Below are positions 1,390 to 8,788 of a stretch of DNA of 8,788 nucleotides, one piece after another. Position 1 is the stretch's first letter. Each line of letters starts with the position of its first letter. The position numbers were made by a program, and so were the translations under genes. The notes under the pieces are model-generated. The model ran no database searches. It saw nothing but the letters and a program-made list of their open reading frames with translations, and had not been told where the DNA came from. Origin of the DNA: a virus. Taxonomy: Duplodnaviria; Heunggongvirae; Uroviricota; Caudoviricetes. The stretch lies in IMG/VR virus record IMGVR_UViG_2698536657_000019; one strand, written 5' to 3'.

Positions 1390-1854
1390 ATGAGTGATAA
1401 GCTCCCTTCTGATTACGACATTCTTTTTGACCTGTGGTACAGCTACTGGCTTGAACGTATTACATGTGTGTTTCACCGACGCGTTTCTGCTGCTCTGCGA
1501 ATCAGCGCCTTTCTGGTTGGTGTTGCGGCGTTTGTCCTGTGTGATTTTGTTGTGTTGGTACTCTTCAGTGTGGTTCTGTTTCTGCTTTGGCAGTGCATGG
1601 CTGCCAGTTTTGAACGCAGGGCTGAAAAGGCTGAATGGCAGGCAGTCAGTTACCAGCGCCTTATCAGTCAGCGCCATGTGATTAGTAAGGAATGCATGAT
1701 TGCGCGCCTCTCCTTTGTTGAGGAAAGTGACAGTCCCATCATGGAGTGCATGATTAATCTTGCCTGGAATAAAGCCTGTGAGGCGGTTGGCAGCTCTTCG
1801 CGCAATCATGTTTCGATCTCCGGTCGGTTACTCAGTCGCCTGTGCGGCTTTTGA
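1390..1854 (+). CDS. putative membrane protein, 154 aa, convergent with the early operon
   Basis: ATG at 1390. Hydrophobic stretch ISAFLVGVAAFVLCDFVVLVLFSVVLFLLW, CTG-dominated Leu codons. Possible promoter TAGAAT at 1326..1331. SD is weak (GGGG 9 nt upstream). Overlaps the 3' end of 1828..2178 by 27 nt. Competes with a minus-strand ORF starting at 1809 that has its own SD. Confidence 0.35.
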   Translation: MSDKLPSDYDILFDLWYSYWLERITCVFHRRVSAALRISAFLVGVAAFVLCDFVVLVLFSVVLFLLWQCMAASFERRAEKAEWQAVSYQRLISQRHVISKECMIARLSFVEESDSPIMECMINLAWNKACEAVGSSSRNHVSISGRLLSRLCGF

Positions 1855-2178
1855 TTTGCCAAGCAGCTGTGCGACAGTTTCGCCGGCCGCCCGATTTTCC
1901 GGGAATGACACCGGCATGTTCAGCTTGAGTGCCATTGCGTACTCAGCCCGTGCGCCAGCGGACTCTTCCCATCCATCCAGTAAGTAAATGGCATCGGCAC
2001 ACATGAGCATCGGAATACAAATGCTCATGTACTGCTGCTGGCTTAATCCGTCAGGCAGTACGGCAGGATTAAGAACAATGTTTCCGGCGTACCTAAGCTT
2101 CAGGTCCGCCAGGCAAAACTCCAGTCTGTTGTCGTCTTTGTATCCGGTCATGGGACCGGCGATATAAATCACGGCCAT
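1828..2178 (-). CDS. probable DUF4406 / nucleoside 2-deoxyribosyltransferase-like protein, 116 aa
   Basis: N-terminal MAVIYIAGPMTG and later LLDGWEES-GA--E resemble the DUF4406 / deoxyribosyltransferase-like family as I remember it. SD GGGAGGT about 6 nt upstream of ATG 2178. Confidence 0.55.
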   Translation of the reverse strand: MAVIYIAGPMTGYKDDNRLEFCLADLKLRYAGNIVLNPAVLPDGLSQQQYMSICIPMLMCADAIYLLDGWEESAGARAEYAMALKLNMPVSFPENRAAGETVAQLLGKSKAAQATE

Positions 2179-2655: not shown

Positions 2656-3636
2656 TCACGTACTGGCAGGGGTAAACATCACGCAGTAAGTTGCATCTCC
2701 CGTTACCGGTCCGCAGTCCGGGCAGTAGCCACCGCCATAGTGACCGCAGGCGTCGCACTGTCTCAGGGTGGCGATAACTTCCGGTGCTGGTTCGCGGGTT
2801 CTTGCGCCAACGCTGCGTGGTGCCTGTATGCAGTTCATCCGGTAACCCTGATAAATGCGTCTGGTTTCCGGTGTGTCGGAATTGGAGATGGTGATGCTGG
2901 TCATGCCGCCCGTTTCCTGCGAAAGGCGGTCAAGTGCTGCCCTCAGGCGAACGTGCTCGTGTTCATCGAATGGTTTTCCGTAGGCGGTGAAATTGTCCCG
3001 GCCACTGAATTGCAGGTAAGGGGGATCGCAGTACACGCAAAGCGTGTTGCCCATGCCGAACAGGTGACTGGCAGAGTTCAGCGTATCCTTAAAATCTGCG
3101 TGGATAAGCAGCGTTCGGGTGCTGTTTGCCTTGTCTGCAAATGCGCGGATTTCATGCTCAGGGAAATAGGGCTTGCGGTAGCAGCCGAAAGGCACGTTAA
3201 AATCGCCTTTTCCGTTCACCCGGTACAGGCCATTAAAACAGTGCCGGTTGAGGTACAAAAACATGGCGGCCAGTCGCAGTTCACGGCGGTCGCTTATTCC
3301 CGTTCTGCTACTCAGGAAGGCATGATTCTCTGCGTTAAAGGTTTCGCGAATGATGAGATAGTCACCCCTGTTGTTGTGGTTCAGGAACAGGGTTTTCGCC
3401 TCGTCGATCAGACTGTCTGTGTTGTCCCGTGCTGCCCGCCAGAAATTAATCAGCGCACCATTGGAATCACCCAGGATGTAGCGTTTGTAACTGGTGTTCA
3501 TGAATACCGATGCGCCACCCACGAACGGTTCAACCAGGCAGTCAGCTTCTGGCAGATGCACCTTCAGTGTGTTCATGATGCGGCTTTTGCCACCCACCCA
3601 TTTCAGCGGTGTGCCGGATAACAGTTCTTTGCTCAT
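2656..3636 (-). CDS. Dam-family N6-adenine DNA methyltransferase with a C-terminal Cys-rich extension, 326 aa
   Basis: Motifs LKWVGGK, CLVEPFVGGASVF (SAM-binding FxGxG), FLYLNR--FNGLYR, FNVPFG-YRKPYFPE, catalytic DPPY (VYCDPPY), NFTAY. These line up with E. coli Dam from memory. C-terminus has CDACGHYGGGYCPDCG (C-x2-C-x7-C-x2-C). SD AGAGG upstream of ATG 3636. Confidence 0.85.
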   Translation of the reverse strand: MSKELLSGTPLKWVGGKSRIMNTLKVHLPEADCLVEPFVGGASVFMNTSYKRYILGDSNGALINFWRAARDNTDSLIDEAKTLFLNHNNRGDYLIIRETFNAENHAFLSSRTGISDRRELRLAAMFLYLNRHCFNGLYRVNGKGDFNVPFGCYRKPYFPEHEIRAFADKANSTRTLLIHADFKDTLNSASHLFGMGNTLCVYCDPPYLQFSGRDNFTAYGKPFDEHEHVRLRAALDRLSQETGGMTSITISNSDTPETRRIYQGYRMNCIQAPRSVGARTREPAPEVIATLRQCDACGHYGGGYCPDCGPVTGDATYCVMFTPAST

Positions 3637-3660
3637 AACGCGGCCTCTTTGTTATAGGTT

Positions 3661-3861
3661 TCATGCGTTAATAAATCCCATGACTTCCCGTTGTTCTTGC
3701 TGAGTAATCGCCAGCGAAAACCGATTCTTATCACCAGGTAGTTGTGGGGCTTTATGCGTGAAAAATTCCGCACACCGTTGCGGAATAAACGCAGCGATGC
3801 GCGGGCTTTTCTTTCCACGTTCAGGGGGGGGGCAGCAACACACATTCAGGATGGCGACCAT
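3661..3861 (-). CDS. hypothetical small protein, 66 aa; frame uncertain because of an internal C9 homopolymer
   Basis: SD GAGGTG 5-6 nt upstream of ATG 3861, directly after the exonuclease stop. Contains a C9 tract (plus strand G9 at 3824..3832) encoding CCCPPP. The overlapping 3633..3845 frame is also open. Confidence 0.45.
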   Translation of the reverse strand: MVAILNVCCCPPPERGKKSPRIAAFIPQRCAEFFTHKAPQLPGDKNRFSLAITQQEQREVMGFINA

Positions 3862-4681: not shown

Positions 4682-4895
4682 TTGTTGACTCCTAAAAAAA
4701 AGACAAAGGGAACCCGAAGGCATGAATGCCTTAATTAATTGCTCGTGTGTTTTCTGGTGTTATTGCGTTCTTGTTTGCAGCTTCAGTTTATCCACAGATT
4801 TTCAGGGCTAACCAGGTGAGGTCACACACCATAAATATCACCCATACAGTGGCGATGGTGAGTATTGCTTTTACATTCTTCATAAAGTTTTTGCT

Positions 4896-5021
4896 TTATT
4901 TACGGCGTTTATCGCCGGTAAAGAATAATTCGATATCCTTCAGTGTGTGGATAATTCGCATAATGCCGATTGCCATAAGCACGGAGATAATCAGAATTAC
5001 CCATGAAAGGAATATGCTCAT
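4896..5021 (-). CDS. small single-pass membrane peptide, 41 aa (MSIFLSWVILIISVLMAIGIMRIIHTLKDIELFFTGDKRRK)
   Basis: Below the 60-aa cutoff of the ORF track; found by hand. ATG 5021 overlaps the TGA of 5018..5260 (ATGA at 5018..5021). Hydrophobic N-terminal helix, basic C-terminus. AT-rich region. Confidence 0.4.
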   Translation of the reverse strand: MSIFLSWVILIISVLMAIGIMRIIHTLKDIELFFTGDKRRK

Positions 5022-5639: not shown

Positions 5640-5834
5640 TTACAGTGATTCGTCTCTTGTCAGCCTAAAAATCACTTCAGCCATGACTTCGCTAATTACA
5701 TCGATCCCCTGATCGGTAAGGGCTTCTTTCCAGGCCTTGCTTGCACGTGTTGGATCCATCCTGCCTGATTGCTGTTGTATGATGATGAAGCGTAAATCGC
5801 TGTATAAGTCTTTTGTTTGAGTGGAGTCAGTCAT
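5640..5834 (-). CDS. hypothetical small protein, 64 aa
   Basis: SD GAAGG about 7 nt upstream of ATG 5834. Its start codon shares bases with the ATG of the plus-strand gene at 5833 (CATG), so one of the two starts may be wrong. Confidence 0.45.
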   Translation of the reverse strand: MTDSTQTKDLYSDLRFIIIQQQSGRMDPTRASKAWKEALTDQGIDVISEVMAEVIFRLTRDESL

Positions 5835-6270
5835 GTCAATACCTTCAAATCTTGATGTTTTTAATGAAACAGTTGGTAAAACTTTTGCGTTTCTTTATGA
5901 AACTTTTCCCCGCAAAGTAACTATTGATATTTGTGCCTTAACCGGTGTTTCAGAGCTGACTTTTGAAGAAGACCGATCCTCCAGGAGGCAACTAGTTGAA
6001 GCTCTTGAGCTTCGCCGTGACTCCATCGCATGGCTTGTTGATGCTGGTTATGTATCCGCTAAATCTTCTCCTCCGCATTACTTTTCTGATGCGGTTCTCA
6101 CGGCCAAAGGTCTTGAATTACTTAAGCTTGATCCAGAGTCACTTAAACAATCATTTGGCGACAAGCTTGTTGATGCAGCCAAGAGTGGTTCAATGGATGC
6201 GATAAAAAGCACCGCATCATCCGCTCTTACTACTGGGTTATCCTTTGCTTTCAAAAGTCTTCTTGGTTGA
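5833..6270 (+). CDS. hypothetical protein, 145 aa, AT-rich opposite-strand cargo gene
   Basis: ATG 5833 with SD GAGTGGAG about 6 nt upstream. The ORF-track GTG at 5821 has no SD. Visibly AT-rich, A/T-ending codons, opposite to the early operon. Followed by a perfect 8-bp hairpin. No recognisable catalytic motif; hydrophobic C-terminus SALTTGLSFAFKSLLG. Confidence 0.55.
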   Translation: MSIPSNLDVFNETVGKTFAFLYETFPRKVTIDICALTGVSELTFEEDRSSRRQLVEALELRRDSIAWLVDAGYVSAKSSPPHYFSDAVLTAKGLELLKLDPESLKQSFGDKLVDAAKSGSMDAIKSTASSALTTGLSFAFKSLLG

Positions 6271-6312
6271 TTGTTGCGCCCCCGCATAACACCAACGATT
6301 AGATTATTTACG

Positions 6313-6350
6313 GCGAAATCTCCTGTTGTGGATTTCGCTGTGTGTTTGAT
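6313..6350 (+). terminator. hairpin with U-rich tail, candidate terminator for the plus-strand gene
   Basis: Perfect 8-bp stem GCGAAATC / GATTTCGC (6313..6320 and 6331..6338), 10-nt loop, then TGTGTGTTTGAT. Confidence 0.4.
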
Positions 6351-6351
6351 A

Positions 6352-6777
6352 TTAAGCTGCTTTTTTACTGATACGTTTATTCCGTAAACCAGCTGCTGGC
6401 TTAAATAAAAAAAGTCGGTTTTCCCATTCGTGCCATTCTTGCGGTGCGTTTTCAGTGAGTCGATCGCAGGCTTCATCCCACGCTTTCCGGTTGATGTAGA
6501 GTTCGGCGTTTCCGCCAGGCTTGAGAGGGTCCGCCATGTACACAGCGGGTAATTTCCCTGCTTTTGCCATGCTCACGATGGCGTCAACGGTCTTGCCGAT
6601 ATACATCGCAAACCCTTCTTTTGACAGGAGATGAGAAGGGTTTTGTGAAAGCCTGATTTCCTGGCGTTCAGGGGCTTTGCGCCCGGTCTTTTGGTGTGCG
6701 GTTTCTGGCGCATCTGTCAACTGATCGCACTGTGTTTCGGCAGGCGATTCAGGCGCGTTTTGAGTGACTTCTTGCAT
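6352..6777 (-). CDS. cox: Cox-like excisionase / transcriptional regulator with an N-terminal extension, 141 aa
   Basis: C-terminal half (FAMYIGKTVDAIVSMAKAGKLPAVYMADP...AW) resembles P2 Cox (FAKLIGK...GKLPVIDMTDP...AW) from memory. Start set at ATG 6777 with strong SD GGAGGA about 7 nt upstream. Divergent from the repressor. Confidence 0.75.
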   Translation of the reverse strand: MQEVTQNAPESPAETQCDQLTDAPETAHQKTGRKAPERQEIRLSQNPSHLLSKEGFAMYIGKTVDAIVSMAKAGKLPAVYMADPLKPGGNAELYINRKAWDEACDRLTENAPQEWHEWENRLFLFKPAAGLRNKRISKKAA

Positions 6778-6884
6778 CTGGTATCCTCCGTTATTGGTGC
6801 TATTTCTATTTAGCACCAGTTAGAGCCGCCTAGATTGTCTCTAGGTGTGTTTGTTGATGTATAAACTAAGAGAGTTAACTCACT
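6778..6884. promoter_or_regulatory. immunity switch region between cox and the repressor, with operator-like repeats
   Basis: 107-bp intergenic region between divergent cox and C. Perfect inverted repeat TGGTGCTA-N8-TAGCACCA (6795..6818), CCTAGA-N5-TCTAGG (6829..6845), TAG motifs phased at about 10 bp (6811, 6821, 6831, 6842), and a -10-like TATAAA (6860..6865) upstream of C. Confidence 0.6.
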
Positions 6885-7184
6885 ATGTCAACTAACGTAG
6901 GTGAAAAAATTAGAATCATGCGTAAGTCTGAAATGCTTACACAAGAAAAAATGGCTGAAATTACAGGGCTCACGGTAGCGGCCCTGCGTCAATATGAACA
7001 GGGGAGAAATGAGCCAAATCTTGAATCCACAAAAAAGCTGCTCAAGTCTCCCGTCTTCCGTAAATACCGTGACTGGTTTTTGTTCGATGAGGTCGAACCA
7101 AAGGCCGGGCAGGTGGTACCGGCTCTCGCACACATTGGGCAAAGCGAAGCGGAATCATCCCACTCCGGCAAGAAGACTGGTTAA
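6885..7184 (+). CDS. C: P2 C-type immunity repressor (XRE-like HTH), 99 aa
   Basis: 99 aa, HTH segment LTQEKMAEITGLTVAALRQYEQG, C-terminus APALAHIGQSE...SHSGKKTG resembling P2 C as remembered. Lies immediately upstream of and co-oriented with int. Confidence 0.8.
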   Translation: MSTNVGEKIRIMRKSEMLTQEKMAEITGLTVAALRQYEQGRNEPNLESTKKLLKSPVFRKYRDWFLFDEVEPKAGQVVPALAHIGQSEAESSHSGKKTG

Positions 7185-7250
7185 CGGTCCATCTGGCCTT
7201 TATTTCTCAAAATTGTGATCAAGATGATGTTTTCATTGGGGGGCTTCCTT

Positions 7251-8246
7251 ATGTCGATTAAGAAGCTCGCTGATGGCAAATACTGTGTGGACGTGCGGCC
7301 TGCTGGATCTGAAGGAAGAAGATTTCGGCGGCGATTTCCTACCCGTGGTGAAGCGGCGATGTATGAACGCCATGTTCTGACGCATTATCACGATAAGGAC
7401 TGGGTCGAAAAACCTATTGAACGTAAAGCGTTAAGCGATCTTCTGGAACTGTGGTGGGTGTACCACGGTAAGAATCATCGTTATGGCGCGATGAATCGGG
7501 TCAGAATTGAAGCGGTTCTTCGTGATATGCAAGAGCTTGGTATTAACAGAAGTGACCACTTAACCCGAAAAAATATTATCAGATATCGCCTTGAATTAAT
7601 GAATCGCGGAATTAAGCAGTCAACGGTAAATCGTTATTGTGCAATGATGAGCGGTTTCTTTGAAAAGCTGATTGATGTTGAAGAGTTTGTGGGTGATAAC
7701 CCGTTTCACGAGATACGCAAGCTAACAATTAATCAGCCGGAAATGGCTTATCTTGCACATGATGATATTCCCAGGCTAACCGCACTTTTATCTGGCGATA
7801 ATCTTAAGGCTGTATTGTTAAGCCTGGCTACAGGCGGGCGCTGGGGTGAAGTTGCCAATATTAAAGGTGAACACATAATTGGTGGGAAGGTTATTTTCAT
7901 GGAGACAAAGAATGGATCGCGGCGGGTTATTCCTATAGCTAAAGATCTTGAATCTCTGATTAAAGTCAAAGCGACGGGAAGATTAATGAACCCCAGTTAT
8001 GCGATAGTCAGAAGTGCAATAAGGACTGTGCGGCCTGATTTACCAGTCGGTCAGTCTGTGCATGTTTTACGGCACACATTCGCAACTCATTTCATGATAA
8101 ATGGAGGGAACATTATTACCCTTCAGCGTATTTTAGGGCACAGCACAATTCAGCAGACAATGACCTATGCGCACTTTGCACCTGATTATCTCCAGGACGC
8201 GGTAAGGTTCAATCCGGTTGCGGAGTTGTCCAGATTTTGCCCATAA
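7251..8246 (+). CDS. int: P2-like tyrosine integrase, 331 aa
   Basis: N-terminus MSIKKLADGKYCVDVRPAG parallels P2 Int. Catalytic motifs TGGRWGE, HVLRHTFATHF, LGHSTIQQTMTYAHF (Tyr nucleophile). Start moved from the ORF-track GTG 7215 to ATG 7251. Confidence 0.9.
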   Translation: MSIKKLADGKYCVDVRPAGSEGRRFRRRFPTRGEAAMYERHVLTHYHDKDWVEKPIERKALSDLLELWWVYHGKNHRYGAMNRVRIEAVLRDMQELGINRSDHLTRKNIIRYRLELMNRGIKQSTVNRYCAMMSGFFEKLIDVEEFVGDNPFHEIRKLTINQPEMAYLAHDDIPRLTALLSGDNLKAVLLSLATGGRWGEVANIKGEHIIGGKVIFMETKNGSRRVIPIAKDLESLIKVKATGRLMNPSYAIVRSAIRTVRPDLPVGQSVHVLRHTFATHFMINGGNIITLQRILGHSTIQQTMTYAHFAPDYLQDAVRFNPVAELSRFCP

Positions 8247-8336
8247 ACGGGGACTAAATGGCACTATTCCGAACTACTTTGAACTCGTAACTATTTGATA
8301 TATAAAGGGGGATAGCGATACGCGCTACCCCCTTAT

Positions 8337-8363
8337 GCCACCTTCGGGTGGCGTTGTTTTATG
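8337..8363 (+). terminator. rho-independent terminator downstream of int
   Basis: GCCACC-TTCG-GGTGGC hairpin (8337..8352) followed by GTTGTTTTATG. Preceded by a second imperfect 12-bp hairpin at 8305..8334. Confidence 0.55.
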
Positions 8364-8494
8364 CGATGTATCTCGCGATTTTTTTTTGTAACTTTTCCAT
8401 CTTTTGCTTTTCTCTCCGAGCCGCTTTCCATATCTGCAATCGCATAAAAAACTCTGCTGGCGTTCACAAATGTGCAGGGGTAAAACGTTTCCTG

Positions 8495-8536
8495 TAGCAC
8501 CGTGAGTTATACTTTGTATAACTTAAGGAGGTGCAG
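8495..8536 (+). promoter_or_regulatory. chpS promoter/operator region with SD
   Basis: Perfect inverted repeat AGTTATAC-TTT-GTATAACT (8505..8523) overlapping a -10-like TATACT (8508..8513). SD AAGGAGG (8525..8531) 5 nt before ATG 8537. Confidence 0.4.
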
Positions 8537-8788
8537 ATGCGTATTACCATAAAAAGATGGGGGAACAGTGCAGGTATGGTCATTCCCAATATCGTAATGA
8601 AAGAACTTAACTTACAGCCGGGGCAGAGCGTGGAAGCGCAGGTGAGCAACAACCAACTGATTCTGACACCCATCTCCAGGCGCTACTCGCTTGATGAACT
8701 GCTGGCACAGTGTGACATGAACGCCGCGGAACTTAGCGAGCAGGATGTCTGGGGTAAATCCACCCCTGCGGGTGACGAAATATGGTAA
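8537..8788 (+). CDS. chpS: ChpS (ChpBI) antitoxin, MazE/AbrB-fold, 83 aa
   Basis: Translation MRITIKRWGNSAGMVIPNIVMKELNLQPGQ... matches E. coli ChpS as remembered. Its stop overlaps an ATG at 8783 (ATGGTAA) that would begin chpB (MV...), cut off by the window end. Confidence 0.9.
   Translation: MRITIKRWGNSAGMVIPNIVMKELNLQPGQSVEAQVSNNQLILTPISRRYSLDELLAQCDMNAAELSEQDVWGKSTPAGDEIW

Follow-up and report, generated by a model that had tools for sequence, protein, structure and literature searches.

RESULTS

Two divergent genes with overlapping start codons lie downstream of cox

The DNA analyzed here is an 8,788-nucleotide (nt) viral sequence (IMG/VR record IMGVR_UViG_2698536657_000019), referred to throughout as the window, which comprises the immunity and early-replication end of a P2-like Escherichia coli prophage integrated beside chpS-chpB. 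The subject of this work is a pair of divergent genes within it: a plus-strand gene of 145 amino acids (aa), named T, which runs from the ATG at position 5833 to the TGA ending at 6270, and a minus-strand gene of 64 aa, named sB (positions 5640 to 5834). The gene order of the window mirrors that of P2. A C-type helix-turn-helix repressor (6885 to 7184) and the tyrosine integrase gene int (7215 to 8246) are on the plus strand. On the minus strand, cox (6352 to 6816; Pfam Phage_Cox, E = 1e-27; also a coding sequence [CDS] in the PGAP annotation) is the first gene of the early (Pe) operon, whose further genes, encoding DUF4761, DUF4754, a 3'-5' exonuclease, Dam, and DUF4406, head towards gene A. 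T lies antisense between cox and these early genes, on the strand of the C-like repressor and int, and sB runs in the direction of cox and the early operon. P2 itself has Orf78 and B after cox, both in the direction of cox, in agreement with the initial annotation of this DNA, which had stated that only small co-oriented early ORFs occupy this interval in P2.

That annotation had described T as an opposite-strand ORF with its own Shine-Dalgarno (SD) sequence and hairpin terminator and with a visibly higher AT content than its flanks, and each of these features was recovered. RefSeq/PGAP calls the identical 438-nt CDS (WP_016237679.1) in a 99.5% identical E. coli prophage, that of E. coli DETEC-S792, with the identity taken over the queried gene. 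The SD sequence of T, GGAG (5823 to 5826, plus strand), lies 6 nt before the ATG and falls inside codons 3 and 4 (D-S) of sB; an SD-like motif precedes T in 58 of 72 nonredundant loci. On the 3' side of T, before the 3' end of cox, the plus strand carries a hairpin (6309 to 6342) with 11-nt arms that are 91% complementary. Its folding energy is -18.2 kcal/mol for plus-strand RNA versus -12.1 kcal/mol for the minus strand, which has no T-run. The hairpin is directly followed by TGTTTGAT, a weak U-tract, and is terminator-like on the plus strand only. The GC content of T (0.420) is the lowest of all genes in the window and differs from that of its flanks (cox, 0.505; DUF4761, 0.491; whole window, 0.498). 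This contrast is real but only modest, because int (0.448), sB (0.446), and the gap from 4724 to 5017 are likewise AT rich.

T belongs to a large family of phage proteins

T matched PHROG 2266, a phage family of unknown function, at E = 1.4e-31, with residues 5 to 140 aligned to positions 3 to 143 of the 144-position profile. Homologues with 30 to 99% identity were found in E. coli, Yersinia, Serratia, and Pseudomonas, and comparison with three of the homologues gave ratios of nonsynonymous to synonymous substitution rates (dN/dS) of 0.21 to 0.26. A family profile built from 17 members retrieved 1,483 clusters (counted at 50% identity and E ≤ 1e-3), including 719 at E ≤ 1e-10. Nearly all of the best 150 of the 1,483 clusters were single-domain proteins of 135 to 160 aa. 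The gene is also present in the isolated phages Midge, FSL SP-004, and PhiKM. When the region was compared with 50,697 phage genomes by megablast, nothing was returned, and tblastn of T against phage genomes gave only 11 to 13 distant "hypothetical" homologues. Among 5,426 complete E. coli genomes, the body of T was found in only 3, sensitive blastn included.

The dN/dS of about 0.2, the match to PHROG 2266, and the 1,483-cluster family mark T as more than a chance ORF. The opposing explanation is that T is a chance or decaying frame in a region serving as a mere spacer or antisense leader of the early operon. The rarity of T in E. coli, its loss from relatives that keep a stub, and the failure to find a promoter would fit that explanation. 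It is contradicted by the dN/dS, by a full-length family that extends over several phyla, by the confidently predicted fold, and by the conserved SD sequence, and no Rfam family matches at the T interval. We regard a nonfunctional ORF as extremely improbable, and family-wide conservation refutes it for practical purposes. T is a real, uncharacterized accessory ("moron") gene of a P2-like prophage.

T is a variable insert whose empty sites keep a 5' stub

The order cox-T-sB was found in the window and in two other E. coli genomes. sB was present in 18 E. coli genomes, 15 of which lacked T; in these 15, sB was abutted by either cox or a different immunity region, and T survived there only as its first 35 to 38 nt. 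In LZSFT34 and SCU-106, cox is directly followed by sB, and in EC2, sB lies beside a different immunity region. All three retain only a 35- to 38-nt 5' stub of T, which begins MSTPSN and then reaches a stop codon (readings MSTPSNLDVFNETFSS and MSTPSNPDALNDPGLF). In the T-less prophages (loci L120, L121, and L003), the window sequence is kept up to positions 5867 to 5870 and then diverges. The retained side of this breakpoint consists of sB, the SD sequence of sB, and the first 12 or so codons of T; the stub is the segment that bears the sB ribosome-binding site.

The initial annotation had called T an insert, and comparison with related P2-like prophages bears this out. Like other morons, T is present in some close relatives and missing from others that have the same flanking genes. 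Two further traits of morons were also found: a composition unlike that of the flanks, with a modest difference, and a terminator of its own, in the form of the hairpin at 6309 to 6342 with its weak U-tract.

The start codons of T and sB overlap, and the two genes are conserved together

The start codons of T and sB share the sequence CATG at 5832 to 5835, with the ATG of T at 5833 to 5835 on the plus strand and that of sB at 5834 to 5832 on the minus strand, giving an overlap of 2 nt. The SD sequence of sB, AAGG (5842 to 5845, minus strand), is the complement of T codons 4 and 5. Each SD sequence is located within codons 3 to 5 of the other gene, and therefore each mRNA is antisense to the translation start region of the other.

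This geometry is a property of the family and not of the window alone. CATG sharing was found in 64 of 73 loci with the partner gene versus 10 of 41 loci without it, the latter being the level expected by chance, and in 36 of 39 nonredundant pairs. The identical 2-nt overlap is present in the independent annotations of Klebsiella phage ST147-VIM1phi7.1 and E. coli phage Midge, at about 26 to 28% protein identity, as well as in Yersinia and Serratia prophages, Janthinobacterium, and P. yamanorum. An SD-like motif for sB was present in 33 of 36 nonredundant pairs; it is mostly GGAG, the complement of the conserved Ser-Asn codons of T.

sB was divergent from and immediately upstream of T in 72 of 117 fetched loci and in 40 of 73 nonredundant group-context entries. 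The paired loci span Enterobacteria, Pseudomonas, Janthinobacterium, and a Phycisphaerae metagenome-assembled genome. Across pairs, the divergence of T was correlated with that of sB (r = 0.82), which fits a unit whose two genes are inherited and mobilized as one. sB is itself a conserved family in which Q21 is invariant, W35 and L39 are invariant or nearly so, and D27 and R30 are nearly invariant, and its dN/dS is 0.20. A tblastn search of sB against 50,697 phage records gave no match. Homology of sB to P2 Orf78 was considered and rejected (hhalign probability, 0.6%).

The initial annotation had treated sB as simply the next early gene. It is instead a conserved partner whose ATG overlaps that of T and which moves with T between unrelated phage positions. 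The description of T as a genuine opposite-strand accessory insert of lower GC content stands, but the partner had been missed.

Copies of sB also occur alone. Two Providencia loci (L123 and L124, 3551 to 7603) carry an orphan sB after cox, and their replication gene is a Toprim primase and not gpA. Therefore, early operons outside E. coli also carry sB on its own.

The cassette occupies unrelated phage positions in a constant orientation

The T/sB pair, or T alone, was found in at least five kinds of phage position. These were the early operons of P2-type and 186-type phages (after cII in the 186 type); the interval between the large terminase gene and gpW/portal of lambda-like heads, in Pseudomonas; myovirus tail modules, either between the tail tube/sheath genes and the chaperone/tape-measure genes or after gpD; sites beside holin and endolysin genes; and the P2 gpA-gpQ hotspot. 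These data establish T and sB as a mobile two-gene cassette. T recurs at the cox-proximal position in some P2/186-like prophages, where it has no known early function, and is also found elsewhere in phage genomes.

In all classified contexts, T was opposed to the flanking phage operon and sB was read in its direction. In global neighbor counts, T was opposed to 54 of 69 downstream and 44 of 71 upstream neighbors; these counts are noisy because the ORF calling was crude, especially in GC-rich genomes.

The orientation bears on the idea that T is an infection-phase counterdefense protein or host-factor inhibitor, which would tie up a protein of the host, for instance a nucleoid protein or defense sensor, much as T7 gp5.5 or Ocr does. 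The small size and acidity of T are in line with such a role, as is its presence in the isolated phages Midge, FSL SP-004, and PhiKM, and in the record of Midge, HHpred similarity (91%) to the T7 5.5/5.7 fusion protein is noted. That lead was not reproduced here, and T opposes every lytic operon in which it resides, the opposite of what is expected of a gene expressed during infection. We consider this role improbable.

In Yersinia enterocolitica (loci L004 to L006, 4268 to 7059), the pair lies between the C repressor gene and cox, where sB would come first among the ORFs of the early transcript. The expanded C-cox interval of these loci also holds a 155-aa ORF on the plus strand and an 86-aa ORF on the minus strand.

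Early transcripts are predicted to cross T in antisense

A scan of the window found no terminator-like site on the minus strand between cox and sB, and Pe transcripts should therefore cross T in antisense on their way to sB and the replication genes. The best candidate -10 element for a T promoter is TATAAG at 5803 to 5808 (plus strand), inside sB; it is weak and has a poor -35. This element is semiconserved in the enterobacterial copies, yet it overlaps the conserved (L/I)Y codons of sB. Rfam contains no known noncoding RNA that matches the T/sB interval, and the Rfam matches of the window lie elsewhere.

On the minus strand, a promoter-like site, TCCACA-18-AATAAT (6303 to 6332; 9 of 12 consensus positions), falls within the hairpin segment that separates the 3' end of T from cox. 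It is directed to the left, antisense through T and towards sB, and is a candidate internal promoter for the early genes.

T is predicted to be an acidic winged-helix protein and sB a three-helix bundle

Residues 1 to 100 of T were modeled confidently as a winged-helix domain (AlphaFold2 with the family alignment; pLDDT of about 90). Residues 101 to 145 were predicted as low-confidence helices, yet they are conserved (P101, L104, G109, K117, and G135), a combination that fits a segment that becomes folded upon contact with a partner or a membrane. The tail segment is amphipathic and weakly basic. The possibility that it contains a transmembrane anchor was considered and rejected: the maximal mean Kyte-Doolittle hydropathy over 18 residues had a median of 1.17, and only 1% of the proteins reached 1.6. 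The family is acidic throughout, with a median pI of 4.8, and the net charge of the N-terminal domain has a median of -6 (range, -12 to -1).

A winged helix raises the prospect that T is a DNA-binding regulator of the MarR/PadR kind, acting on the cassette, the prophage switch, a neighboring defense operon, or host genes, with sB as an antirepressor. The predicted fold is a winged helix, as in MarR/PadR regulators, but the basic, conserved recognition helix and wing of such regulators were not found. The recognition-helix segment is the least conserved part of T; the N-terminal half of helix 3 is variable, with insertions and deletions, and is Glu rich in many members, including those of Pseudomonas. 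A profile search of the Protein Data Bank with T returned only AspA, at E = 0.18. The pair has no intergenic region, since the start codons overlap. The acidity and the variable, Glu-rich recognition helix make T more likely to bind a protein or a membrane than an operator. T is thus unlikely to be a classical repressor, and we hold a DNA-binding role of any of these kinds to be doubtful.

sB was predicted with confidence to be a three-helix bundle (pLDDT of 89), whose structural neighbors were generic only, and it has no Pfam family. Neither T nor sB matches a known toxin or antitoxin family, and the pair is divergent with overlapping ATGs and is not a cotranscribed operon of the kind formed by type II toxin-antitoxin (TA) genes.

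These results must be weighed against an account in which the roles are reversed, with sB as a lytic host-takeover or toxic protein and T as a lysogen-made antidote against leaky expression of the early operon. T has the layout of an antitoxin, with a predicted folded winged-HTH N-terminal domain, an acidic charge, and a conserved low-confidence C-terminal tail that may fold onto sB. Furthermore, sB invariably reads in the sense of the lytic operon that contains it, each partner has orphan copies, as is the case for TA and immunity genes, and leaky sB mRNA would be silenced because the two start regions are antisense to each other. However, T and sB are divergent rather than cotranscribed, sB is predicted to be a plain three-helix bundle with no toxin-like match, and prophages with sB alone are common and apparently stable (15 of the 18 E. 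coli genomes). On balance, we judge reversed roles to be unlikely, at a level that nonetheless merits consideration.

Several sB copies (L007, L021, L037, L051, L064, L105, and L109), mostly from tail modules, have Cys-rich C-terminal tails (for example, PRCQCHCCRHC, CPCCRNH, and SPCCCKR), which are missing from the enterobacterial copies and from those between terL and the portal gene. These tails may be metal-binding or modification motifs.

T is found in intervals that hold defense genes

In Klebsiella phage ST147-VIM1phi7.1, the T homologue is located in the P2 gpA-gpQ hotspot beside a reverse transcriptase gene and an XRE gene, and the homologue in Midge also lies in the gpA-gpQ hotspot. 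This interval of P2 is a hotspot for defense and accessory genes (Rousset et al. 2022, PMC9122126). In the window, T lies in the int-primase interval, a minor hotspot that accounts for 8% of P2 defense systems (PMC13586616). In two Pseudomonas-type loci (L030 and L031, about 7500 to 10450, plus strand), T without sB is directly upstream of SIR2-like and HerA (DUF87) genes on the same strand; the HerA protein matches its PADLOC family at E = 7e-166, and these genes therefore represent the known SIR2-HerA defense system.

Other features of the window

A second opposite-strand gene occupies 1390 to 1857 (plus strand) and encodes 155 aa, annotated by PGAP in a near-identical genome as WP_271290490.1. 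It contains the strongly hydrophobic stretch FLVGVAAFVLCDFVVLVLFSVVLFLLW; this gene, flanked by DUF4406 and by genes upstream of A, is possibly a moron for a membrane protein. A strongly negative AT skew marks the region from 1390 to 1857.

Two matches at the Rfam gathering level were found on the minus strand, to the C4 antisense RNA (RF01695; 82.6 bits; 1063 to 1150) and to isrK (RF01394; 67.1 bits; 1186 to 1260), which is an Hfq-binding small RNA. Both lie upstream of small minus-strand ORFs that precede gene A. They suggest that positions 1063 to 1260 hold a P1/P7-type c4/immI-like or IsrK-type antisense control element in a P2-like prophage.

Between Dam and the 3'-5' exonuclease, a small minus-strand ORF (about 3633 to 3861) is annotated in related prophages as a "ParE family toxin-like protein"; the adjoining annotation has no obvious antitoxin partner for it. 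The most AT-rich stretch of the window (4724 to 5017; GC content, 0.395) lies between the exonuclease block and DUF4754 and has a single annotated ORF of 41 aa. The cox ORF is long, with 154 aa from its first start codon and 141 aa according to PGAP, and the Pfam Cox domain covers residues 53 to 133 only. Its N-terminal extension is acidic, rich in Gln, Thr, and Pro, and variable among relatives (95 to 174 aa). At the right end of the window, beyond 8247 to 8530, lies chpS, the antitoxin gene of the chpSB pair (8531 to 8788, plus strand), so that the prophage int borders the chpS-chpB-ppa locus. A tRNA gene is lacking, and the attachment site is therefore not a tRNA.

DISCUSSION

Tentatively, and at somewhat below an even chance, we favor a reading in which T and sB form a lysogeny-phase accessory module whose T is silenced, and perhaps neutralized by sB, when lytic transcription fires. 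T would be produced in the lysogen, as long as the lytic operon stays silent, and it would bind to a protein or membrane target instead of DNA, with a benefit for the lysogen. Our leading guess for this benefit is interference with incoming phages, and conflict between phages would be the most plausible payoff. Upon induction, transcription from Pe would meet T head-on and silence it by transcriptional interference, and antisense RNA over the T ribosome-binding site would add to the silencing. The same Pe transcript would express sB, which may bind and neutralize residual T and thereby protect the lytic cycle of the prophage itself. As a phage-versus-phage conflict module, the pair is a reasonable but unproven candidate. 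The more ambitious claim, that this is a widespread and previously undescribed self-gated conflict module, strikes us as rather unlikely in its full form. In such a module, T would be produced only when the lytic operon is off and would block the development of competing phages, and sB, transcribed solely with that operon, would switch T off both by antisense RNA with transcriptional interference and by protein neutralization, so that the resident phage would be immune to its own weapon.

Several results weigh against a lysogeny-phase module with sB as its off switch. T lacks sB in about 45% of the nonredundant groups, and sB stands without T in Providencia as well as in 15 of the 18 E. coli genomes that carry it; because of these orphan copies, neither gene strictly needs the other. 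The conserved 2-nt overlap may, at least partly, represent evolutionary lock-in rather than regulation, because any shift damages both genes. With respect to expression, the window has no consensus-grade sigma-70 promoter upstream of T, which leaves room for weak or activator-dependent sites. In the family, 0 of 39 paired loci and 2 of 33 unpaired loci had a sigma-70-like site (at least 9 of 12 positions) before T, which did not exceed the antisense-strand control. A terminator-like site follows T in only 12 of 72 loci versus about 5 expected from shuffled sequences, and this feature is not family-wide. The initial annotation had recognized no motif in T, and T indeed has no Pfam match (E ≤ 0.01) and no NCBIfam match (E ≤ 1); neither T nor sB matches any PADLOC-DB v2 family at E ≤ 1. 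Among the families listed for 145 variable neighbors, those for defense were SIR2-HerA and PD-Lambda-5_A (one neighbor), and methyltransferases were also present. With only two clearly recognizable defense systems among the families listed, guilt by association is weak.

If the lysogeny-phase reading is correct, T and sB represent a compact and very widespread module, with at least 1,483 clusters at 50% identity in Proteobacteria and beyond. A prophage would carry a factor that harms phages and would disarm it automatically once its own lytic program starts, and this gating would need only gene orientation and a shared start site. The module would add a family of defense and self-immunity genes that is invisible to PADLOC and Pfam, and it would provide a natural example of two protein genes with ribosome-binding sites antisense to each other. 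Whatever the function, the orientation rule and the sharing of CATG make the adjacent "early gene" of P2-like prophages interpretable.

Prophage morons and accessory hotspots are already well known. The T family, its sB partner, the shared-ATG architecture, and the orientation rule were not found in the literature and curated libraries that we searched, and a review of the P2 regulatory region mentions no such gene. T resembles old, tin, and fun(Z), which serve P2 in exclusion and lysogenic conversion, and the genes of the gpA-gpQ hotspot in that it is small, variable between close relatives, lower in GC content, and located in defense-bearing intervals. Unlike old, tin, and fun(Z), it has no PADLOC similarity, has a partner with an overlapping start, and is also found at non-P2 head, tail, and lysis positions. 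T differs from MarR/PadR regulators in that it has no match to a family hidden Markov model, is strongly acidic, and has a nonconserved recognition helix. By analogy, its domain layout and acidity, its small adjacent partner, and the orphan copies may recall type II antitoxins, but T and sB are divergent and sB resembles no toxin.

Closer in logic to the lysogeny-phase reading are lambda/P22 sieB-esc and BstA-aba, prophage defenses with a self-immunity element inside the defense gene, as either an in-frame product or a DNA site. T and sB would share with these systems an anti-phage factor expressed in the lysogen and a linked element that spares the resident phage. The T/sB element, for which no homology to these systems was found, would differ in that it is a protein gene of its own, divergent from T and transcribed with the lytic operon. 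Temperate phages also use convergent or antisense switches, such as the face-to-face promoters pR and pL of 186 and the sar RNA of P22 immI, and Pe and Pc of P2 likewise have a face-to-face layout. T and sB are similarly opposed units with overlapping transcripts, an arrangement in which strong lytic transcription could interfere with the unit read in the lysogenic direction. In contrast to these switches, the T/sB overlap spans both translation starts, which share one CATG and have each SD sequence within the opposite ORF.

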